A stretch of DNA of 64,000 nt from an uncultured Gammaproteobacteria bacterium (GTDB taxonomy: Bacteria > Patescibacteriota > Patescibacteriia > Magasanikbacterales > JBBTQS01). The stretch covers positions 72,384 to 136,383 of the forward strand of contig CAZVIA010000001.1 in assembly GCA_964627525.1 (NCBI GenBank), given 5' to 3'. Below are positions 6,652 through 60,977 of this stretch, one piece after another. How positions within the stretch are numbered: the stretch's first letter is position 1; every line of letters begins with the position of its first letter. The position numbers were made by a program, and so were the translations under genes. Under the pieces are notes generated by a model. That model had not been told where the DNA came from, made no database searches, and was given only the letters and a program-made list of their open reading frames with translations.

Positions 6652-6734
6652 AATTTTCGCTAAATTTAGCCAAAAAATAAGCACTATAAATAAACTTGAC
6701 TTATAATTTTTTTTCTGATAAACTTATTTCAAAT

Positions 6735-6840
6735 GCCACAGACAGCAGGCTGTTTCATAAGTCCTGCCGAGGTAAAAGACTATTAATTAGGTCGACTTTT
6801 ACTAGTTTCCTGTGGCGAATGTGTCACAGTTTTTTGTTTA
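6735..6840 (+). promoter_or_regulatory. putative ribosomal protein L10 (rplJ) autoregulatory leader
   Basis: Nested inverted repeats gccacag..ctgtggc, gcagg..cctgc and gtaaaag..cttttac lie immediately upstream of rplJ. This position is typical for the L10(L12)4 binding leader. Confidence 0.4.
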
Positions 6841-6843
6841 AAT

Positions 6844-7371
6844 ATGCCAAAAACAAGACAACAAAAAGAAAAAGATGTAGCAGATTTGACTGATGTTATC
6901 AAACAAAGCAAAGCTGCTGTTTTTGCATCATTTAAAAACATCACAGTTGGCGACGCGCAAACATTGCGTAGAAGCTGTCGTGAAGTAGATGTAAAATATT
7001 TAGTTGCAAAAAAGACTTTAATGAACCGTGCATTTAAAAATGCTGGTTATGATGATGTGGACACTTCTCCTTTTGAAGGTAACATTGGTGTTGCTTTTGG
7101 AATGGGTGATGAGGTTGCATCAGCAAAAACATTAGATACATTTGCCAAAGACCATGAGGGTTTCACTATTTTGGGTGGAATTTTAGAAGGACGTTATATT
7201 AAAGCTGATCAAGTGATTAGTTTGGCTAAATTGCCAAGTCGCGATGAATTACTTGCCAAGTTGGTAGGTTCATTAGCTGCTCCAATGTCTGGTTTTGTAA
7301 ATGTATTAGCAGGTGTACCGCGTAATTTTGTACAGGTTTTATCTGCAATAAAAGATGCTAAAGAAGCATAA
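6844..7371 (+). CDS. rplJ: 50S ribosomal protein L10
   Basis: L10-like sequence and size, directly upstream of rplL. Confidence 0.9.
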
Positions 7372-7406
7372 AGCATAAAAAGAAACATAAATTAATTTAT
7401 AAAGAT

Positions 7407-7823
7407 ATGAGTGAAGAAACAACACAAGAAGAAAAAAAGGACGTAGTTGTCCCAGAAAAATTCAAATCTCTTGTTGAAGAGGTTGAAAAAATGTCAGTAC
7501 TTGATTTAGCTGAACTTGTAAAAATTCTTGAAGACAAGTTTGGTGTTTCAGCTTCTGCTCCAGTTGCAATGATGGCTGGTCCAGCTGCTGGCGAAGCTAC
7601 TGTAGAAGAAAAAGATGAGTTTGATATTGAGCTTACAGGATCTGGAGAAAATAAGATCTCAGTTATTAAAGTTGTTCGTGAAATAACTGGTCTTGGTTTG
7701 AAAGATGCTAAAGACATGGTAGATGGCGCTCCTAAGGTAATTAAGGAAAAGGCTAAAAAAGAAGAAGCAGAAGAAATTAAGAAAAAGATTGAAGAAGCAG
7801 GTGGTACTTGCGATTTGAAATAA
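7407..7823 (+). CDS. rplL: 50S ribosomal protein L7/L12
   Basis: Ala/Glu-rich hinge and a C-terminal domain with [20 protein letters not shown]. Confidence 0.95.
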
Positions 7824-24255: not shown

Positions 24256-24329
24256 GCCACAGTAGCTCAGTTGGTTAGAGCGCATCCATGGTAAGGATGA
24301 GGTCTCCGGTTCGATTCCGGACTGTGGCT
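24256..24329 (+). tRNA. tRNA-Thr (anticodon GGT)
   Basis: Cloverleaf by hand: acceptor gccacag/ctgtggc, D arm gctc..gagc, anticodon stem catcc/ggatg with loop atGGTaa, T arm tccgg ttcgatt ccgga. Confidence 0.85.
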
Positions 24330-24342
24330 CATAAACAATATA

Positions 24343-24371
24343 TTGATAAAATCCAAAAAATCTGCTAAAAT
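24343..24371 (+). promoter_or_regulatory. promoter TTGATA-N17-TAAAAT for the Fic toxin-antitoxin pair
   Basis: ttgata at 24343, a 17-nt spacer, taaaat at 24366. The SD aaaggtga lies 5 nt before the antitoxin ATG. Confidence 0.5.
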
Positions 24372-24380
24372 AAAGGTGAT

Positions 24381-24527
24381 ATGAGAGAAAAAATTGCCAA
24401 AAAAAAAGAACTAAAAAAAGCAGTATCTAGATCTTCAAAACTCGAAGGTCTTAGTTGGAATAGTGCAAAAAAAAATACTTCTATCATCCGCAAACTAAAA
24501 AAATATGGCAGAGCCTTCTCGATATAG
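24381..24527 (+). CDS. small Fic antitoxin (FicA/VbhA-like) with SxxxEG inhibitory motif
   Basis: 48-aa ORF absent from the ORF track (under 60 aa): MREKIAKKKELKKAVSRSSKLEGLSWNSAKKNTSIIRKLKKYGRAFSI. SSKLEG fits [ST]xxxE[GN]. Overlaps the fic start by 23 nt and has a good SD. Confidence 0.6.
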   Translation: MREKIAKKKELKKAVSRSSKLEGLSWNSAKKNTSIIRKLKKYGRAFSI

Positions 24528-25116
24528 TGTTAGTGATAAGGATGCAGGTGTTCAAAATGGTATTTTAAAAAATAAACTCAAGATTAAAGACCAGAAAATT
24601 TTGGATGATGCTGAAACCATACTTCTTGGTGACACATATACGCATTTTTTTGAATTGCTTGAAAAAGGTGAAATTAAATTTGATTTTTCTCTGATATTTG
24701 AGATACATAGATTTTTTTTAAACACTTTGTATTCTTGGGCTGGAAAGACTAGGACTATTGATATTTCAAAAGACGGAATGTTTTTTGCCTCGGTAAAATA
24801 TATTGATAGTTCGCTTAAAGATTTTGAACAGATTTTGAGAAAAAATATTCCAGTTGAAAAAGATACAAAGAGAAGGTTCGCGCAAAAACTTGCTGTTATT
24901 CACAATGAATACAATGCTATTCATCCATTTCGTGAAGGTAATGGGAGAGCTGTTCGTCTTTTTCTTGATTTGCTTGTAGTAAAATTTGGATACAATCCAA
25001 TTGATTGGAGTAAAAAACAAAAAAATAAGTATATCGAAGCATGTGTCAAAGGCATGTCACAAAAAAATAAACAGATGGAGCAGATAATTTATTTTGGTTT
25101 GTATAAGCAAAAGTAA
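24505..25116 (+). CDS. fic: Fic-domain protein (class I Fic toxin, AMPylation/adenylyltransferase family)
   Basis: HPFREGNGRAVRLF matches the Fic motif HxFx(D/E)GNGRxxR. 203 aa. Confidence 0.85.
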   Translation: MAEPSRYSVSDKDAGVQNGILKNKLKIKDQKILDDAETILLGDTYTHFFELLEKGEIKFDFSLIFEIHRFFLNTLYSWAGKTRTIDISKDGMFFASVKYIDSSLKDFEQILRKNIPVEKDTKRRFAQKLAVIHNEYNAIHPFREGNGRAVRLFLDLLVVKFGYNPIDWSKKQKNKYIEACVKGMSQKNKQMEQIIYFGLYKQK

Positions 25117-25207
25117 ATGACATGGTTTTGTCCTGTGGGTAATATAGATCTGGACAAATTCTGTCAGATATAATATCATTATTTCAGTTAATTTAGTTTT
25201 ATTATTA

Positions 25208-25291
25208 GGGTCGGTAGCGAAGTGGTTAAACGCATCAGACTGTAAATCTGACGGCCTCGTGCCTCCGGGGGTTCGAATCCCTCCCGGCCCA
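25208..25291 (+). tRNA. tRNA-Tyr (anticodon GTA), long variable arm
   Basis: Acceptor gggtcgg/ccggccc, anticodon stem tcaga/tctga with loop ctGTAaa, long variable arm, T arm ttcgaat. Confidence 0.8.
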
Positions 25292-25294
25292 CAA

Positions 25295-25388
25295 AACTTA
25301 AAAAACATATTATTTGTTCCTATCCCGTGCTAATTCTAGCACTCGACCCTCAACGGGTAAGTGTCACAAATAATATGTTTTTTAAGTT
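25295..25388. mobile_element. 94-bp MITE-like element or integration scar: perfect 23-bp terminal inverted repeats around a 48-nt structured core
   Basis: aacttaaaaaacatattatttgt (25295-25317) and acaaataatatgttttttaagtt (25366-25388) are exact reverse complements. The core contains nested hairpins cccgt..acggg and gtgcta..tagcac. Sits 3 nt after tRNA-Tyr. Confidence 0.45.
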
Positions 25389-25503
25389 AATAAATTAATT
25401 TACAACAATTTTACTAACTAAAACTTGTTTTTTTTACATTAAGTGTATACTTCGTATCAACTGGCGTGAATGGACACGTCAAAAAAGCAAAGGAGGGTTA
25501 GCC

Positions 25504-26049
25504 ATGAAAAAGGCAACCTACTTGTTGTTGGCAGGGCTAGCGCTCGTTGCGCTGGTCTGGCCAATCTTGGCAACAGCATCTCAACCGTCAGACGACGCGG
25601 GAGAGCAGTTGTGCCAGGTTTGGCCGGGGATTTCGTTCTGCATGTCAGCACCCGACGAGGTCGTGGTTGCTGGCAGTGATCTGTTGTTCACGTTCGATGA
25701 TCAGAGCGCGCCGCAGATCCTGATGCAGGACAAGAACGGGTTGTTCATGGTGACGGGGCTGATCCAGGTTCCGTATGACCAGTTGGCAGTGCTGATGAGC
25801 CAGAAACTCGTCGGACTGCTGATCTGGGAAGATGGGCAAGGTCGTATTCTCATGCAGGCGCCCGACGGGCTCTTCGTGTGGTGCGACAAAGCAGAAGGCA
25901 CGTGCTTTATCATGGAGAAGAAGCCGGCGGAGAGCGGCGACTTCATCATGCAGAGCAGCTTGATCATCGGACCGTGTACTGGGAATCTCATTCTGGTGAA
26001 CAAGGCTTGGGGTGGTCCGATCGTGCCAATCAACATCGTGTTCTGTTAG
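25504..26049 (+). CDS. secreted hypothetical protein, horizontally acquired (about 57% GC against a 33% GC genome)
   Basis: Signal peptide MKKATYLLLAGLALVALVWPILATA. SD aaaggaggg precedes the ATG. Strongly GC-rich codon usage unlike neighbours. Confidence 0.7.
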   Translation: MKKATYLLLAGLALVALVWPILATASQPSDDAGEQLCQVWPGISFCMSAPDEVVVAGSDLLFTFDDQSAPQILMQDKNGLFMVTGLIQVPYDQLAVLMSQKLVGLLIWEDGQGRILMQAPDGLFVWCDKAEGTCFIMEKKPAESGDFIMQSSLIIGPCTGNLILVNKAWGGPIVPINIVFC

Positions 26050-26075
26050 TACTGCACAGACAGTGCGAAGCAGAA

Positions 26076-26126
26076 AAACACGCGAGAGCGTCTAGGTAAC
26101 ACTAGGCGCTTCTCTGTTTTTTTAAA
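26076..26126 (+). terminator. intrinsic terminator
   Basis: GC hairpin cgcgagagcg...cgcttctctg followed by T7. Confidence 0.5.
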
Positions 26127-26194
26127 TTAAATTTGATACATGGTTTAAAAAGTTATAAAGTAAGAATGTAAGAAATTATTACTTATATAAAAAT

Positions 26195-26440
26195 ATGAAT
26201 GTGATTTTAAAAGCTACTACAAAAGGGCAAATAACTTTGCCTGCAAAATGGAGAAGGTCTTTTAATACAGATCAGTATCTTGTAACAAGTAAGGGTGGAA
26301 TGCTTGAGGTGCGCCCTGTTGATCTTAAATCAGCTATAAATACAAAAGATGAATATACTGTTTTTGATGCAATCCGAGATAATAAAGGTAAAGGTATAAA
26401 AGCAAAAGATCTTGTAAAAGTTTTGAAAAAAATGACTTAA
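26195..26440 (+). CDS. AbrB/MazE/SpoVT-family swapped-hairpin DNA-binding protein (antitoxin-like), AT-rich
   Basis: KGQITLPAKWRRSFN is typical of AbrB/MazE N-termini. 81 aa. No cognate toxin adjacent. Confidence 0.5.
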   Translation: MNVILKATTKGQITLPAKWRRSFNTDQYLVTSKGGMLEVRPVDLKSAINTKDEYTVFDAIRDNKGKGIKAKDLVKVLKKMT

Positions 26441-26608
26441 GCTTTTATGGATCAAATACAAAAATTGTTTAAGATAGTATAAAATTAAGAAATGAGCAGA
26501 TTTATAAATAATATTTTTTAAATTAAAAAAGACCTCACTTCGTGTGGGTCTTTTTTGTTGTTTAAGTTTCTGACTCATCTTGAGTCAGTCGGCCGAAATG
26601 GCCTGTCC

Positions 26609-27226
26609 TTAGTGGATCGCCTCGTTGTCGTCCATGCCAGCTCCTGTCACGTTGCAGTGCACCCGAATGGCGCTCCGCGGAATCGTGACACAGAACTCAC
26701 CGTGTTCTGAGGAGGTCGAAACCTCTTCAGTGGTGGTCAACACAATGTGCCTTCCCACCTCACAGTTCGCCTTGACAAGGACTTGCTCGATCCACTCCAC
26801 CAGGTTGTCCGTGGCAGTACGCTCACCCAAGTCCATTGCTTCGACCTCGGGCATGCACTGTTCGAACACCACGATCGTCGGGATGCGCACCGTCTTGGTG
26901 AATATCACGCCGCCACTCTTCTTCGAGCTTGGGGTGGGCTTGGATTCCTTGGTCGTCAGCGTCTTGCCAGCAACCCAGGTTTCCTCCTTGTCTTGGATCT
27001 CCACCTCGCTGCCGGTTTGGCGAGCGAAGCGCAGAACCTCCAGGAGGGTGGGATCGCCGCGCCCGACGTCCACGGTCTCCTCGCCAGCGACCGGAGTCGC
27101 TGTCCGAGTCGGACCGCCTGCAGGTTGAGCTGTCGCCGTCGTGGCACAGCCTGGGTTGAGGGCGATAATAGCTATGACCACCGCAAGGGCGATCGAAGAA
27201 AAAATCAGTTGCACTATTGCCTTCAT
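26609..27226 (-). CDS. hypothetical lipoprotein, horizontally acquired (about 58% GC)
   Basis: Start MKAIVQLIFSSIALAVVIAIIALNPGCATT (signal plus lipobox-like NPGC). It is preceded by SD caaggaga and by a perfect TTGACA-N17-TATAGT promoter. Confidence 0.65.
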   Translation of the reverse strand: MKAIVQLIFSSIALAVVIAIIALNPGCATTATAQPAGGPTRTATPVAGEETVDVGRGDPTLLEVLRFARQTGSEVEIQDKEETWVAGKTLTTKESKPTPSSKKSGGVIFTKTVRIPTIVVFEQCMPEVEAMDLGERTATDNLVEWIEQVLVKANCEVGRHIVLTTTEEVSTSSEHGEFCVTIPRSAIRVHCNVTGAGMDDNEAIH

Positions 27227-27350
27227 TGAAGGGTGTCTCCTTGTGGTTTGATTTACGGTCGTTTGTGCAGTTTTAGAGAACCCTACTGATGATCTGTTCT
27301 GCGTCAGCTCATCATGCAGTACTCTCCAAAAAGTACATATTAAACAGATA

Positions 27351-27379
27351 ACTATAGCATATTTTAGCGATTTTGTCAA
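27351..27379 (-). promoter_or_regulatory. sigma70 promoter TTGACA-N17-TATAGT driving the GC-rich lipoprotein gene
   Basis: Reverse complement of 27351-27379 reads ttgaca aaatcgctaaaatatgc tatagt. Near-identical (26/29) to the promoter at 60899-60927. Confidence 0.6.
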
Positions 27380-27456
27380 CCCTCACTGGCTTTGCCAGCT
27401 CGGGTTGTCAACTGCGTCTTTAATTTTTGCCTAAAATAAGCTAAAATCATAACACA

Positions 27457-27485
27457 TTGACTACTTAGGTTTTTCAGTGTACAAT
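27457..27485 (+). promoter_or_regulatory. sigma70 promoter TTGACT-N17-TACAAT for tRNA-Thr/rpmG
   Basis: ttgact at 27457, a 17-nt spacer, tacaat at 27480, 13 nt before the tRNA. Confidence 0.6.
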
Positions 27486-27498
27486 ACCCTCGTAATCT

Positions 27499-27572
27499 GC
27501 CACCTTAGCTCAGCTGGTTAGAGCGACGGTTTTGTAAACCGTAGGTCCAGGGTTCGATTCCCTGAGGTGGCT
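27499..27572 (+). tRNA. tRNA-Thr (anticodon TGT)
   Basis: Acceptor gccacct/aggtggc, D arm gctc..gagc, anticodon stem acggt/accgt with loop ttTGTaa, T arm cagggttcgattccctg. Confidence 0.8.
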
Positions 27573-27596
27573 CTGAAAAAATTGAATAAAAATTTT

Positions 27597-27752
27597 ATGT
27601 CACAAGACGCATTAACAAAAATGGAGTGTACTGAATGCAAAAGAGTAATGATTTACACCCGTAAAAACAAGAAAAAAATCAAAGAAAGATTGGTGTTAAA
27701 AAAGCATTGTAAAAGTTGTAAAAAACACACCTCGCACAAAGAAACCAAATAA
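27597..27752 (+). CDS. rpmG: 50S ribosomal protein L33 (zinc-ribbon type)
   Basis: CTECKRVMIYTRKNKKK...KKHCKSCKKHTSHKETK. The listed GTG start at 27567 lies inside the tRNA, so ATG 27597 was chosen. Confidence 0.85.
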   Translation: MSQDALTKMECTECKRVMIYTRKNKKKIKERLVLKKHCKSCKKHTSHKETK

Positions 27753-27754
27753 TT

Positions 27755-28210
27755 ATGGTTGAAATTGTTCATGATCCTCTAGAAGCTAATGTTGCTCAAA
27801 AGCTTATTTTGCGTCAAGGAAATAAGCTTTTGCTTTTAAAGCACCAGCTAAGAGATGCTTGGGATTTTCCAGGAGGGCGTTTGAACAAAACAGTTACTAA
27901 AAATCCAACTCAAGCAGAGCTTTTAAAAGAATTTCATAGAGAGGTTTTAGAGGAAGTTGGCGAGGATGTTGAATACACTATTGAACCCAATCCGATTACA
28001 ACTGCTTTGTCTATAAAAAAAGATGGCAAGCGATATATCTTTTTGGTTTTTTACGAAGGGGAGTATAATAAAGGTGAGATAAAGTTGTGCGAAGAGCACA
28101 CTGAATATAAGTGGGTAGATGTAAATACTTATGAGCCAGAAAAAGACACTTGGATTCCAGAGTATTTAGAAGTTGTAAAAAATTATTTGGAAAAAGTTCG
28201 TTCAAAATAA
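27755..28210 (+). CDS. NUDIX hydrolase
   Basis: GGRLN...ELLKEFHREVLEEVGEDV matches the Nudix box GX5EX7REUXEEXGU. Confidence 0.8.
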   Translation: MVEIVHDPLEANVAQKLILRQGNKLLLLKHQLRDAWDFPGGRLNKTVTKNPTQAELLKEFHREVLEEVGEDVEYTIEPNPITTALSIKKDGKRYIFLVFYEGEYNKGEIKLCEEHTEYKWVDVNTYEPEKDTWIPEYLEVVKNYLEKVRSK

Positions 28211-28231: not shown

Positions 28232-28304
28232 GGGCCCATAGTTTCAATGGCTAAAATGTCGGTCTCCAAAACCGAAGTTCTTGGTTCGAGTCCAAGTGGG
28301 CCTG
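28232..28304 (+). tRNA. tRNA-Trp (anticodon CCA); genomic CCA follows the discriminator
   Basis: Acceptor gggccca/tgggcct, anticodon stem tcggt/accga with loop ctCCAaa, T arm cttgg ttcgagt ccaag. Confidence 0.8.
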
Positions 28305-28390
28305 CCAAAAAAACAAAGTCCTGTTGTACTTTGACGCGTTATGCGTCTAGTAACAACAGGACTTAGTCTGTTTTTGAGGGGGGTAGAATC

Positions 28391-30325
28391 TTATCTACCT
28401 CTGCCTCTGCTTCTACCTCTACCCCTACCCCTACCTCTTTTGCCATGTTTGGGCTTGGAAGGCTTGCGAACTGTTTTCGCAGGCTCGGTAGTTTTTACAG
28501 GTATGCCACCAACCACTTCTTCAGATTTATTTTCTTCAGAAGTCGGTTCAATAGAGTCTCGCAATATCACCAACTCAAGAATGTAAGTAGTTTTACCTGA
28601 TAGGAATCGAGTTGCTCGCATTTCTTCTAGGTTGTAGTCAACCCATTCTGCGATTTTTTGATGTTCGAGCATTACCGCGATTTTAACCATCAAATAGCGA
28701 AACAATGTTATGTGATCATTGCCAGCTTCTCCACGACCCTTTGCAATCCAGCGGCGCATGTACCAGCCTTGACGTTTTGACCGATTTGCTTTGAGCCAGC
28801 TATCATCACCTCTAACATTTGATTCAATCTGCGCAAAGTCATCTATGCTAGCAAGCCACCATTCTTCCAGCCAACTTGATAGCTCTTTTTTTGCATCTTC
28901 ACTTAGTATTGTTGCTGACATTGGTATTGCCCAATTTGCCAGCTGCACAAGCTGAATTTCATCTTCAGAAATATCTTTTAGTCTGTTAAACAAACTATTC
29001 ACAAATGCTGAATTTAGTGATGTCTTGTTAAAGCTGTGTCTTGTTGTGCCAGAGGGGTTTTTGGCTATAGTAGGCCACCCAGATTCAGGAATCATGTCAT
29101 ACAAACGCATCATCTTTCTAACTTGTGTGATGTAAGGATCCCAGGTTCTGCCAGCTTTTTCTACTTCTGTTTTCTCAACAGCAATTCCATTGAAATAATG
29201 CACACCAATTGCAAGCAAAAATTTCCAATTGCCATTATAATGAGCTTTAGGTAAGCTCACCGAACTACGAGTTGCCACAGGTTCACAATTATCTGAAGTA
29301 TTTAGCTTTGCAGAAAAATTTATTGTAGGACAACTAAGTTTTATTGCTACAGGATTTACTGCATAGAGATTAGTATCTGGTTCTGAGGTGATATTTGAAG
29401 CTAGTTTTTCGATTTCTTGGAGTTTGCCAACCTTACTTGTATATTGTGCATTGGCATGATCAGGTGTTGTGGCTAGTGTGGATTTTTCAAAAGCCGCAGC
29501 TTTTTCAGGTACTACTTCTTTGATAGATTCCCAAGTACATTCCCTTTCTCTTTTCTCTTGAAGCAGTGCTACGAGTTCTTCTGATTTCACACCCTTGAAC
29601 GGATTGCTCATGTCTTCATCAGTAGCTTCTGTTGAAACCGCATCAGAAGTGTCAGTAGGAGGTTCATCAACTTGATTTTCGCTTCTAACAATCGCAGAAA
29701 TATAAATCGTCACAAGAGCACCAATAATCAAACCGACAGCAAGACCAGAATACAAGCGTAGTTTGCGCTTATTTTCTTGCAGTGCTATTAAGTGTTTTGT
29801 ATATTCATCACGCTCATCTTTTGGTAGATCTTGGAAAGGAATTATTTTTCGTTCAAGAAGTGCATCATAAGCTGCTCTTGTTATTGATACACGATGACCA
29901 CCATCGCATTCTTGGAGGTGGGACAAAGTGCATATGCTATGTATAAATACACCTTTTTCATCTTCTTCTTTGTCAGAACCAATAAGTGCATTCCAACAAG
30001 AGACAAAAAATCCAATTACAGAATCCAAGATTCTAGGCAGAGTTCTTCCACTCCATTTCCAGATACTCACAAGAATATATAGAATAAAGTTAAGAGCTTT
30101 TCTTACTACGGATGGTTTGTGTAGTCTACCACTAAGAGATTCTATTTCTTCAGTAGCTTCACCTTCATCCTCATCTTTGCTCTTACCTTCACCTTCTTGA
30201 ATTATAAGCTGTGTTTTTTCTGGATCAGATTCACCAGGAATCCTAATCTTAACTTCTTTGGGTTCCATATCTTGAGGTACTCCAGATTTGTCTGTATCAG
30301 TAGGCGGTTTTTTTACATCACTCAT
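28391..30325 (-). CDS. large hypothetical membrane protein with acidic N-terminus, two TM helices and a C-terminal RG-repeat tail
   Basis: The tail is ...KPKHGKRGRGRGRGRSRGRGR*. GC is somewhat above background. No recognisable catalytic motif. Confidence 0.5.
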   Translation of the reverse strand: MSDVKKPPTDTDKSGVPQDMEPKEVKIRIPGESDPEKTQLIIQEGEGKSKDEDEGEATEEIESLSGRLHKPSVVRKALNFILYILVSIWKWSGRTLPRILDSVIGFFVSCWNALIGSDKEEDEKGVFIHSICTLSHLQECDGGHRVSITRAAYDALLERKIIPFQDLPKDERDEYTKHLIALQENKRKLRLYSGLAVGLIIGALVTIYISAIVRSENQVDEPPTDTSDAVSTEATDEDMSNPFKGVKSEELVALLQEKRERECTWESIKEVVPEKAAAFEKSTLATTPDHANAQYTSKVGKLQEIEKLASNITSEPDTNLYAVNPVAIKLSCPTINFSAKLNTSDNCEPVATRSSVSLPKAHYNGNWKFLLAIGVHYFNGIAVEKTEVEKAGRTWDPYITQVRKMMRLYDMIPESGWPTIAKNPSGTTRHSFNKTSLNSAFVNSLFNRLKDISEDEIQLVQLANWAIPMSATILSEDAKKELSSWLEEWWLASIDDFAQIESNVRGDDSWLKANRSKRQGWYMRRWIAKGRGEAGNDHITLFRYLMVKIAVMLEHQKIAEWVDYNLEEMRATRFLSGKTTYILELVILRDSIEPTSEENKSEEVVGGIPVKTTEPAKTVRKPSKPKHGKRGRGRGRGRSRGRGR

Positions 30326-59676: not shown

Positions 59677-59738
59677 AAAAAAAGACCCCCCGCACTATGT
59701 TACAATTCGTGCGTAAGGGCCTTGTTTTGGGGGGTCTT
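59677..59738. terminator. strong intrinsic terminator (terminates minus-strand ncRNA-2; also lies 3' of the plus-strand GT2 gene)
   Basis: A7, then gaagacccccc ...38-nt loop... ggggggtcttc. On the minus strand it reads stem then U7. Confidence 0.6.
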
Positions 59739-60209
59739 CAGACGCCGCCATGTCCCCCCGGTTCAGTACTCCAGGATTAGAAGGACTTGCATCTCTTCTG
59801 CCTTCCTTTGGCTTTTGAGGTCAGCCACTCCAGAGAGCCATCGCGTTTTTTTTGCGGTTGTTACAAAGGTGCGATAACTGTTTTTGACAATTTCGTATCG
59901 TGCTGTCGTCAGCAGTCAACTTAGTTTCTTAAAACTCGCTTTGTTTATTCTGCTGTTTTTACACTGCAGGTTGTTTTGCGAGTTACACATGCTTTCATGC
60001 TTTCATAGTCCTTGGAGGTTCAGATTAACATCCTCCCCAAGCTACACCGCCTTGTGTGTTTAGGCGCTGAGGTGCTTCCACCTAACTGATTCAGTCAGGC
60101 TTTAGTAGCCGTGCGAGCAGAACCATTTCTCGCGTACCTCCTTTGCTGGCTTTTGTACGCATTACCAGCGTTTTACTGCTCGTGGTTCTTTTTGTACAAG
60201 TAAGCAGTA
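59677..60209 (-). ncRNA. candidate large structured noncoding RNA, unit 2 (about 530 nt, about 50% GC), family unknown
   Basis: Defined by a perfect promoter (60216-60244) and terminator (59677-59738). No ORF longer than 24 codons in the transcribed sense. Many GC-rich hairpins. The 5' end folds immediately (tactgct..agcagta). Confidence 0.5.
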
Positions 60210-60215
60210 AATGGT

Positions 60216-60244
60216 ATTGTAACACATGTGCGAGATTCTGTCAA
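60216..60244 (-). promoter_or_regulatory. sigma70 promoter TTGACA-N17-TACAAT (minus strand) for ncRNA unit 2
   Basis: Reverse complement reads ttgaca gaatctcgcacatgtgt tacaat. Confidence 0.6.
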
Positions 60245-60284
60245 GCTCGTGCCTACGGCACTCGCTTGTCAACTGCGTCGCTAC

Positions 60285-60320
60285 GCAAAAAAGCAAGTAA
60301 AACTTGCTTTTTTAGTCTCC
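60285..60320. terminator. bidirectional hairpin terminator between the two ncRNA units
   Basis: aaaaaa gcaagt aaaa cttgc tttttt. Confidence 0.45.
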
Positions 60321-60350
60321 ACTCCTTGTTGTCAAACCCTTAGTTTAAAC

Positions 60351-60892
60351 AAAAAAAGAAGACCCGTACCGTAATGGTTCGTGTCTTCTACAGGAGGATC
60401 AAGTTTTGACAGAAACTATGGTAGTTAACCTCCAGAGCAGGTGTTCCAATTCTGCTCCTGCTAATGATGGGGTGCCGAAGCCCACCTTTGCTTCCACTAC
60501 CAGGAGGGTTCCTATTATATGGCCCAACCCATCCAACCTTCTGCTTTGTCGCATCAAGTTGGTCCTTACTCCACACTTGTCATCGTGTGTAAGGCATAAG
60601 AGCCGTTTTTTAGGGTATTTTAGTTCTCAGGCGCGACCCCGAGATCTTGGTACCTCTCTAAACCTCACCAACTATGGGACGCGACTCCCTTTCTGCTGCA
60701 CTGTTGGCGTACAGGTTCTAGCGCTTAGAATTGGATCCAGGCCTTTCAGCGGGACCCAGTTCAATGCGTTCTGGTGCGTAGTTAGAGCACCTCTTTATTA
60801 TCTCCTTTTTGCCGTTATTCGTTTGTCGCCCTTTGAGCACACAGACCCTCTTCAAAAGTTGTCAGAGTCTTGGCTTGCAAAAGACCAAACGA
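60351..60892 (-). ncRNA. candidate large structured noncoding RNA, unit 1 (about 540 nt, about 50% GC), family unknown
   Basis: Defined by a perfect promoter (60899-60927) and an intrinsic terminator (hairpin 60358-60388 plus U7 on the minus strand). The only sense ORF has a GTG start, 62 codons and a low-complexity product. The antisense 181-aa ORF has a non-protein-like composition. Confidence 0.5.
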
Positions 60893-60898
60893 AGACAT

Positions 60899-60927
60899 AC
60901 TATAGCATGTTTGAGAGATTTTGTCAA
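60899..60927 (-). promoter_or_regulatory. sigma70 promoter TTGACA-N17-TATAGT (minus strand) for ncRNA unit 1
   Basis: Reverse complement reads ttgaca aaatctctcaaacatgc tatagt. 26/29 identical to the promoter at 27351-27379. Confidence 0.6.
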
Positions 60928-60977
60928 GTCTTTGGTTTCGTGGTAATCTAATATTGTGTAATTTAAGAGAAATTTAT

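Follow-up and report, generated by a model that had tools for sequence, protein, structure and literature searches.

Two GC-rich genes in the tRNA-rpmG operon of an AT-rich bacterium and their probable recent arrival from GC-rich donors

How did two GC-rich genes come to lie among the tRNA genes of one operon in an AT-rich bacterial genome? The question is raised by a stretch of 64,000 nucleotides (nt) from the assembly GCA_964627525.1 (contig CAZVIA010000001.1, positions 72,384 to 136,383 of the forward strand), which is called the window below and within which all positions are counted. The window carries a conserved tRNA-rpmG operon, and the spacer between its tRNA-Tyr and the following tRNA-Thr holds gene A, on the plus strand at 25504-26049, and gene B, on the minus strand at 26609-27226. 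Each belongs to a somewhat longer GC-rich module (module A, 25455-26121; module B, 26565-27344), and a gene of native, AT-rich composition stands between the two. The evidence favours, at a probability of about 0.78, a recent insertion of A and B from one or two GC-rich donors into a compact tRNA operon, the genes having probably entered as DNA fragments.

The operon begins with tRNA-Thr(GGT) (24256-24330; 67.6 bits in Rfam) and continues with tRNA-Tyr(GTA) (25208-25292), tRNA-Thr(TGT) (27499-27573), the L33 gene rpmG (27597-27752), and tRNA-Trp (28232-28307), all on the plus strand. All four tRNAs are identified by ARAGORN and Rfam and lie where the preliminary description of this DNA had placed them; they are also the only Rfam matches between 23 and 31 kb at E <= 1. 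tRNA-Tyr forms the left border of the insertion, and tRNA-Thr(TGT), followed by rpmG, forms the right border.

The GC content of the window is 35.0%, and 300-nt windows have a mean of 0.350, a standard deviation of 0.047, and a maximum of 0.627; those above 0.50 all fall within 25.5-26.1 kb or 26.6-27.3 kb. Gene A has a GC content of 55.9% and gene B one of 59.1%, so the high GC content first described as 57-58% is real, although the excess over the genome amounts to 21-24 points and not 25. According to GC steps in 40-nt windows, the foreign-like DNA extends over approximately 25455-26115 and 26565-27345, and its sharp boundaries coincide with the leader and the terminator of each GC-rich unit. 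Instead of the single GC-rich island initially proposed, there are two GC-rich units of approximately 0.67 and 0.8 kb that flank an AT-rich gene of native composition (31.7% GC, with 30-31% GC in the non-coding DNA around it). In approximately 17 kb of extra flanking sequence, there was no other island above 55% GC.

GC content at third codon positions (GC3) is 0.736 in A and 0.718 in B, compared with a mean of 0.220 (standard deviation 0.050) in 60 other open reading frames (ORFs) of at least 120 amino acids (aa), a difference of approximately 10 standard deviations. Moreover, relative synonymous codon usage is anticorrelated with that of native genes (r -0.17 for A and -0.50 for B). Foreign composition, proposed at the outset, is thus borne out by GC3 (0.72-0.74 against 0.22 ± 0.05) as well as by the negative correlations. 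In the called frames of both genes GC3 exceeds GC1 and GC1 exceeds GC2, the order expected for coding sequences of a GC-rich organism (GC1/GC2/GC3 of 0.555/0.385/0.736 in A and 0.587/0.466/0.718 in B), and codon periodicity is strong (chi-square 45.7, p 1.2e-10, in A; 27.2, p 1.3e-6, in B). A Shine-Dalgarno (SD) site precedes each ATG: AAAGGAGG in the leader of A, 7 nt ahead, and AAGGAGA in that of B, 9 nt ahead. Single-sequence AlphaFold2 models place helices at residues 2-23 and 3-24 of the two proteins, with low confidence (predicted local distance difference test scores of 42.8 for A and 41.5 for B, too low for a fold search). Because strong codon periodicity, an SD site, and a signal-like helix at the N-terminus are found in both, A and B are coding, and the description of both as intact-looking genes with SD sites holds.

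That the two genes were inserted follows from a comparison with related loci. An L33-anchored scan of metagenome contigs yielded 80 such loci, with L33 identity of up to 75%. The spacer from tRNA-Tyr to the next tRNA measures 1-69 nt in 19 of 23 related loci, 128 nt in one, and 430-634 nt in three, compared with 2206 nt in the window; because it is so short in most relatives, A and B are an insertion. The left flank is syntenic: in nine loci tRNA-Thr(GGT) comes immediately after the end of a full-length homologue of the 300-aa TPR protein, with TIM upstream of the latter, and an M16 peptidase lies further upstream of TIM in two of the loci (L116 and L120). None of the 80 related loci encodes A, B, the AbrB-type protein between them, or the NUDIX and 644-aa proteins described below. 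The synteny anticipated earlier, with a compact spacer in relatives that lack A and B, is therefore found, and these relatives establish a compact operon as the ancestral state.

The same 4.2 kb, with the same junctions and 99.5-100% identity, is present in the JGI data sets 3300009374 and 3300009405, and it also occurs in ENA assemblies of SAMN10231901, SAMN10231903, and SAMN11854489 and in Logan assemblies of SRR8062331 and SRR9166041. These represent at least three biosamples and three assembly pipelines, although some data sets may share physical samples. Single-nucleotide polymorphisms (SNPs) outside the island, at 24601, 27850, and 28113, define three haplotypes, all of which carry the island. 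Every contig with the neighbouring NUDIX gene also carries A, the AbrB-type gene, and B; no island-free variant of the population was found among these contigs, and the sole 'variant' of A is due to Ns that fill a scaffold gap. The insertion is fixed in the sampled population. Two Logan contigs (SRR8062331_6040 and SRR9166041_117307) both begin at 25278, inside tRNA-Tyr, which probably reflects a break of the de Bruijn graph at tRNA sequence common to other organisms.

Homologues of A and B were sought widely. Among 5.77 billion clustered proteins, A matches only itself, and so does B; a full HMMER search of mature B against 1.84 billion representatives returned B itself and two weak matches (E 1.2e-5 and 1.2e-4). 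The latter, Bacteroidota-type repeat proteins of the type IX secretion system with 1056 and 1533 aa, were rejected, as a Thr-rich stretch of 50 aa is matched 9-12 times and the similarity is driven by repeats or composition. Neither protein has a match in Pfam, PHROGs, NCBIfam, PADLOC, or PDB sequences. Searches with tblastn for A and B in phage and plasmid collections, with blastn for the island in plasmids, and in viral contigs for peptides of A, B, and the AbrB-type protein also returned nothing, and A and B show no relationship to each other. A recent transfer should leave a donor copy that can be recognised; as none is present among 15 billion proteins, the donor lineage or mobile element would be one that has not been sampled.

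Module A consists of a 5' leader, the coding sequence, and a terminator formed by a hairpin and a T-run at 26086-26121; its boundaries are taken from the GC steps. The protein has 181 aa and 6 Cys, and its N-terminus resembles a signal peptide, with MKKATYLLLAGLALVALVWPILATA before the cleavage point, followed by S. By inspection the export signal reads MKK, then ATYLLLAGLALVALVWPIL, then ATA with cleavage before S, and it shows the basic n-region, the hydrophobic h-region (15-20 residues), and the small-x-small site of Sec export. In A and B alike, one or two basic residues, some 20 hydrophobic ones, and an A-T-A motif follow one another from the N-terminus. An apparent internal repeat (ILMQ..GLF motif) is not significant (z approximately 2 against shuffles). 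In the JGI gene calls, a 69-aa ORF in another frame appears instead of the 181-aa gene.

Consensus promoters had been claimed for both GC-rich genes; one is present at B (see below), whereas upstream of A no site matches at 9 or more of 12 positions. The nearest promoter-like site upstream of A is that of tRNA-Tyr (25151-25179; 10 of 12 consensus positions), and between the two lies a 94-nt perfect hairpin. This element (25295-25388), recognised from the beginning as the left edge of the GC-rich locus, has perfect AT-rich inverted repeats of 23 bp (25295-25317 and 25366-25388) around a 48-nt core in which two small hairpins are present. It occurs once in the window, where no match is expected by chance, and a DNA scan of viral contigs found no copy. 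As RNA it folds at -35.6 kcal/mol (z -10.9), and it is probably a processing stem between tRNA-Tyr and A.

Module B comprises a leader of 118 nt (27227-27344), the coding sequence, and two 3' hairpins (26570-26606), all read from the minus strand. Its 205-aa protein has a hydrophobic N-terminus with the sequence NPGC, a site ATA before Q, a linker rich in T, A, and P, and a globular part with 4 Cys. By inspection the export signal is composed of MK, AIVQLIFSSIALAVVIAIIAL, and a stretch that ends in ATA before Q, and it has the features of a Sec-exported protein. From their sequences, A and B are small Cys-containing proteins with predicted export, whose place of action is most likely the cell surface or the extracellular space. 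Residues 55-59 of B (27050-27064) read G-R-G-D-P and so include the RGD tripeptide known from eukaryotic adhesion motifs, an occurrence that is likely due to chance.

Upstream of B, on the minus strand, lies a promoter cassette (27351-27418). It contains TTGACA, a spacer of 17 nt, and TATAGT with TG (27379-27351), which match at 11 of 12 consensus positions, and GACGCAGTTGACAA with a 5-bp hairpin lies ahead of these elements (27380-27418). The promoter is identical, spacer included, in 26 of 29 bases to one at 60898-60927, 33 kb away, and the exact 14-mer GACGCAGTTGACAA, followed by the 5-bp hairpin and TTGACA, occurs both upstream of B and at 60215-60279 (14-mer at 60266-60279). The pattern TTGACA(A/G)AATC..TG.TA.A.T has four matches compared with none expected, three on the minus strand (27351-27418, 60215-60279, and 60898-60927) and one on the plus strand (24343-24372). 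Because the cassette is common to units elsewhere in the window, the promoter of B is of a resident type.

Two of these cassette copies precede a pair of adjacent units of approximately 530 nt on the minus strand at 59681-60892 (60209 to 59681 and 60892 to 60354). The units have 47-50% GC, show no codon periodicity, contain no minus-strand ORF longer than 62 aa, and match nothing in Rfam; each has a near-consensus promoter and a terminator of a hairpin and T-run, and they fold with z values of -3.2 and -4.0. They may be large non-coding RNAs of an undescribed kind, and a 181-aa ORF on the plus strand (60406-60951) is probably spurious. A derivation of the two units from genes of the kind of A and B by decay was rejected, as they have neither residual codon periodicity nor similarity beyond the promoters.

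The gene between A and B (26195-26440, plus strand) encodes a protein of 81 aa and is native in composition (GC3 0.18); it lies in an AT-rich middle part (26116-26564), where a promoter-like site of its own (26133-26161) precedes it and a hairpin terminator (26534-26556) follows. An AbrB/MazE-like gene had been noted at this place, and the gene is present; residues 5-42 of its protein match AbrB/SpoVT models of the swapped-hairpin domain just under the curated cutoffs (TIGR01439, E 2.9e-6, 26.9 bits, cutoff 28.3; PF04014, E 3.6e-4, 20.9 bits, cutoff 24.7). No toxin partner was found; the gene is followed by its terminator and then by the convergent gene B, and there is no match to a toxin family. 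The protein is more likely a solitary regulator, to judge from these features, and it may regulate A and B.

The spacers on both sides of the insertion are enlarged as well. Between tRNA-Thr(GGT) and tRNA-Tyr the distance is 0-15 nt in 7 of 10 relatives and 877 nt in the window, where the spacer accommodates a Fic toxin-antitoxin pair (24381-25116, plus strand) of native AT-rich composition (GC3 0.24). The Fic protein of 203 aa (24505-25116) matches Pfam Fic (2.6e-14), a VbhT-like NCBIfam model (2.3e-30), and PDC-S04 (1.6e-54), a candidate defence family of PADLOC, and its start is overlapped by a 48-aa antitoxin gene (24381-24527) with the inhibitory motif S-x-x-x-E-G (S-SKL-E-G); the pair thus shows the features of class I Fic toxin-antitoxin systems, in which a Fic domain goes with a small upstream antitoxin that bears an SxxxE(G/N) motif. 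The interval from tRNA-Thr(TGT) to tRNA-Trp, including the 153-nt rpmG, is 189-330 nt in most relatives and 658 nt here, where a NUDIX hydrolase gene (27755-28210, plus strand; Pfam NUDIX, 1.2e-8) has been added between rpmG and tRNA-Trp. The slot after tRNA-Trp is filled by an ORFan of 644 aa (28391-30325, minus strand) with an RG-repeat C-terminus and near-native composition (GC3 0.27), which has no match in Pfam, PHROGs, NCBIfam, or PADLOC and only itself among the protein matches listed. The Fic pair and the RG-tailed protein are thus present in the neighbouring slots, as first described. Directly after tRNA-Trp, facing the 3' end of the 644-aa gene, is an imperfect inverted repeat of 31 nt (28307-28373; 77% complementary, 5-nt loop), probably a bidirectional terminator. 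Each of the separated tRNAs now has a promoter-like site of its own, that of tRNA-Thr(TGT) at 27457-27485.

In relatives, the enlarged spacers contain small genes of a selfish type. Genes for 23S-rRNA-intervening-sequence (IVS) proteins lie within inverted repeats of approximately 30 nt in locus L111 (1673-2102, Tyr-Thr spacer; PF05635, 2.8e-25) and locus L098 (2280-2714, Thr-Tyr spacer; PF05635, 3.8e-27). A GIY-YIG nuclease gene (PF01541, 5e-17) in locus L096 (9170-9673) adjoins a tRNA-Tyr-like 5' fragment with an insertion in the anticodon loop, locus L113 (152-785) has an HU gene in a tRNA spacer, and locus L125 (2195-2802) has a 198-aa ORF with a LAGLIDADG-like motif seen by eye and no Pfam match. 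Because IVS-protein, GIY-YIG, and HU genes occupy such spacers in relatives, the spacers appear to be recurrent landing sites in the clade, and the locus can fairly be called an integration hotspot, as had been supposed. Another supposed sign of disruption, the lack of secE and nusG after tRNA-Trp, proved correct as an absence; as a local disruption it did not stand, since both genes are also absent there in the four relatives examined, where DnaJ, an RskA_C-like secreted protein, a 633-aa ORF, or HU follows (two of these ORFs were checked against Pfam). rplJ-rplL lie at 6718-7823 with an L10 leader RNA (56.2 bits), but genes for an amino-acid kinase and a YkuD/TSP3 protein stand upstream of them in place of rplK-rplA; in this genome, the classical order secE-nusG-rplKAJL is no longer intact. 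The window contains no rRNA. A scan of genome collections with TIM found relatives of at most 45% identity, from many phyla, among the matches listed. The recipient bacterium is probably ultra-small. The presence of ComEC, the origin of syntenic relatives from groundwater small-cell fractions, and the IVS and homing-type insertions are indirect hints that it may belong to the candidate phyla radiation (Patescibacteria), as had been assumed at first.

In the proposed course of events, an ancestral operon of approximately 0.5 kb, with tRNA-Thr(GGT), tRNA-Tyr, tRNA-Thr(TGT), rpmG, and tRNA-Trp, would have stood directly after a conserved M16-TIM-TPR block. Its Tyr-Thr(TGT) spacer would have grown from a few bases to 2.2 kb, with A and B arriving on either side of the native AbrB-type gene, each foreign piece being complete in itself, with a leader, a coding sequence, and 3' hairpins. 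B would then be transcribed from the strong promoter of resident type, whereas transcription of A would probably start at the tRNA-Tyr promoter and run on past the tRNA, and cleavage at the 94-nt hairpin would set its message free. Within 24.3-30.3 kb, no ORF has a tyrosine or serine recombinase domain (Pfam, PHROGs, NCBIfam), and, AT runs aside, there are no direct repeats of at least 9 bp, tRNA-derived or other, on the two sides of the island or of each module. Elsewhere in the window, a ComEC-type competence channel (PF03772) is encoded at 1002-2321, and a metallo-beta-lactamase-fold gene follows it (region to 3148); genes for type IV pili are close by. The most likely route would be that DNA fragments were taken up and inserted into a permissive spacer by illegitimate recombination, because the pieces are short, integrase and att repeats are lacking, and ComEC is present. 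Breaks made by homing-type nucleases, such as those seen in the spacers of relatives, may have raised the rate of insertion.

One or two donors of roughly 56-62% GC would account for the composition. In the regression of Lawrence and Ochman, GC3 reportedly equals 1.692 GC - 32.3. With a GC3 of 72-74% it gives a donor GC content of approximately 62%, whereas the overall GC content of the genes gives 56-59%. Because GC3 ameliorates fastest and yet is still at the donor level, the transfers are probably recent on an evolutionary scale.

As to whose DNA this was, a GC-rich lineage within the wider clade, or a phage or plasmid of such a lineage, is a possible source that can be put forward tentatively. 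GC-rich members of the syntenic clade exist: five related loci (L111, L113, L116, L118, and L120) have 52-66% GC, TPR-tRNA-rpmG-tRNA-Trp synteny, and L33 proteins 65-73% identical to that of the window. The proteomes of such lineages are full of lineage-specific secreted proteins, and ORFan status like that of A and B is typical of them; moreover, most transfers into Patescibacteria are reported to be intra-phylum (PMC12455944). However, neither the 80 related loci nor the viral, phage, and plasmid collections contained a homologue. Acquisition from the bacterium's own host during an episymbiotic life, for example from an actinobacterium, is distinctly unlikely. A donor of approximately 56-62% GC would fit the GC3 of 0.72-0.74, exported proteins would suit a surface-attached symbiont, and ComEC would offer an entrance, but a host abundant in the samples should have given a homologue among the 5.77e9 proteins or, for B, among the 1.84e9 representatives, and the same survey reports mostly Patescibacteria-to-Patescibacteria transfer (PMC12455944). 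An actinobacterial host is pure speculation, and the GC-rich members of the clade are at least as plausible as donors.

Other explanations concern the nature of the GC-rich stretches. The contiguity of the three genes, the placement of a perfect 23-bp inverted repeat right at their left edge, and the frequency of AbrB-type genes on mobile elements would suit a single arrival of A, AbrB, and B as one composite element, either a decayed integrative island or a miniature transposon, with the 94-bp element as its end. This is unlikely, as no integrase, transposase, or relaxase was found with Pfam, PHROGs, or NCBIfam, neither a duplicated tRNA fragment nor, outside AT runs, any direct or inverted repeat of 9 bp or more was seen at the flanks, the AbrB-type gene and its flanks are native in composition (GC3 0.18), the right edge is a promoter cassette common to resident loci, and the 94-bp element has neither a second copy nor a right-hand partner. 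It would be a long shot to regard A, B, and the two non-coding units at 59.7-60.9 kb as an undescribed class of structured GC-rich modules captured behind a standard strong promoter; if this were true, A and B would be effectors of interaction with a host or partner, and the donor would reveal the organism's partner. It is very improbable that the GC-rich stretches are primarily structured RNAs whose ORFs are by-products of GC richness, or that A and B are long-standing resident genes whose high GC content is maintained by selection on RNA structure. The whole units do fold with z values of -7.2 (A) and -9.4 (B) against 20 dinucleotide shuffles, synonymous-codon shuffles of the coding sequences still give -4.5 and -3.5, the promoter cassette of B is common to non-coding GC-rich units, and several ORFs overlap in other frames; yet codon periodicity is strong in A and B and absent from the non-coding units, SD sites stand at the correct distance before two signal-like N-termini, Rfam has no match at E <= 1, and one GC-rich control gene also reaches z -3.25. 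Assembly chimerism or contaminant DNA is extremely unlikely. A sharp jump in composition and the two Logan contigs that start inside tRNA-Tyr might suggest it, but identical junctions in the independent JGI, ENA, and Logan assemblies and three SNP haplotypes outside the island dispel this concern, and each GC-rich unit is embedded in AT-rich native sequence on both sides in single contigs of up to 64.8 kb.

Several observations weigh against a recent insertion of A and B from GC-rich donors. In the coding sequence of A, the folding z is -6.7 against dinucleotide shuffles and -4.9 against codon permutation, and in that of B -3.3 and -4.0; in seven control genes, some native and some GC-rich, z lies between +0.7 and -3.3. 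The mRNA structure of A thus lies beyond all controls and that of B at their edge, and foreign origin offers no explanation for it. The codon usage of A and B is weakly correlated (r 0.35), with clear differences for Gln, Gly, Ala, and Thr: Gln is encoded by CAG in 10 of 12 cases in A and by CAA in 5 of 6 in B, and GGG stands against GGC, so that one donor cannot be told from two. Neither a donor nor a homologue was found, which leaves composition and synteny as the grounds for transfer. The relatives are distant (L33 at most 75%, TIM 36-47%, and TPR 25-36% identical), and the time and order of insertion cannot be dated from them. In bacterial lipoproteins, the signal peptide ends in the lipobox [LVI][ASTVI][GAS]C (PROSITE PS51257). 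The B sequence ...IIAL-N-P-G-C27 departs from this rule at Asn -3 and Pro -2, and an AXA site, A-T-A before Q34, lies downstream of Cys27. The protein, first described as a 206-aa lipoprotein, is 205 aa long and doubtful as a lipoprotein; cleavage after A-T-A33 or a membrane anchor would be equally possible.

Read as an insertion from GC-rich donors, the locus is a clean example of recent gene acquisition in a streamlined, AT-rich bacterium, with unameliorated genes placed within one of the most conserved gene clusters of bacteria. It is noteworthy for this cleanliness, for its site in an ancient tRNA operon, for the lack of homologues found, and for the resident promoter on B. The tRNA spacers of the operon seem to tolerate and repeatedly receive extra genes in the clade, the split pieces each having gained a promoter. 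If the donor were found, the two predicted exported proteins might point to a physical partner of the organism; at present, the value of the locus lies mainly in a well-documented case and in a target for the source metagenomes.

Among known systems, the closest comparison is with the genomic islands and islets found beside tRNA genes, of the pathogenicity-island type, which are marked by foreign composition, accessory surface-related cargo, an integrase, and att repeats. The locus shares with them its foreign composition and codon usage, a tRNA site, accessory cargo that appears surface-related, and toxin-antitoxin genes nearby. In contrast to them, it has no integrase, no duplicated tRNA 3' end, and no att repeats; the inserted DNA occupies spacers between the tRNAs of a single operon and not a tRNA 3' end, and it is very small, its two pieces of approximately 0.7-0.8 kb being split by DNA of native composition. 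A likeness to type II toxin-antitoxin systems with an AbrB/MazE-fold antitoxin is limited to the AbrB/SpoVT-like N-terminal segment of the 81-aa protein, which differs in having no adjacent toxin gene and scores just below both curated cutoffs. A or B as integron cassettes would not fit, as intI is lacking, the hairpins at the 3' ends are short and look like terminators, and the two genes converge instead of sharing one orientation. No attC-type array is thus apparent.

Small elements in stable-RNA operons are also known from the IVS and homing insertions of the candidate phyla radiation (PMC11270868; PF05635, 23S_rRNA_IVP). Relatives carry IVS-protein and GIY-YIG genes in the same tRNA spacers in which the window has its 94-nt element bounded by inverted repeats, whereas A and B are neither IVS proteins nor nucleases, are not bracketed by inverted repeats, are foreign in composition, and are predicted to be exported. 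In the transfers surveyed among groundwater Patescibacteria (PMC12455944), as in the present case, the recipients are AT-rich, streamlined, and probably ultra-small, possess ComEC, and acquire genes singly or as small islands. The transfers in that survey are mostly intra-phylum, with 3.9-34.5% divergence between partners, and recent ones from other bacteria are rare; the present case differs in its unameliorated composition and in that no partner sequence was found. Set beside these systems, the islet of A and B is best described as recently transferred accessory genes beside tRNA genes, an otherwise ordinary kind of horizontal transfer.

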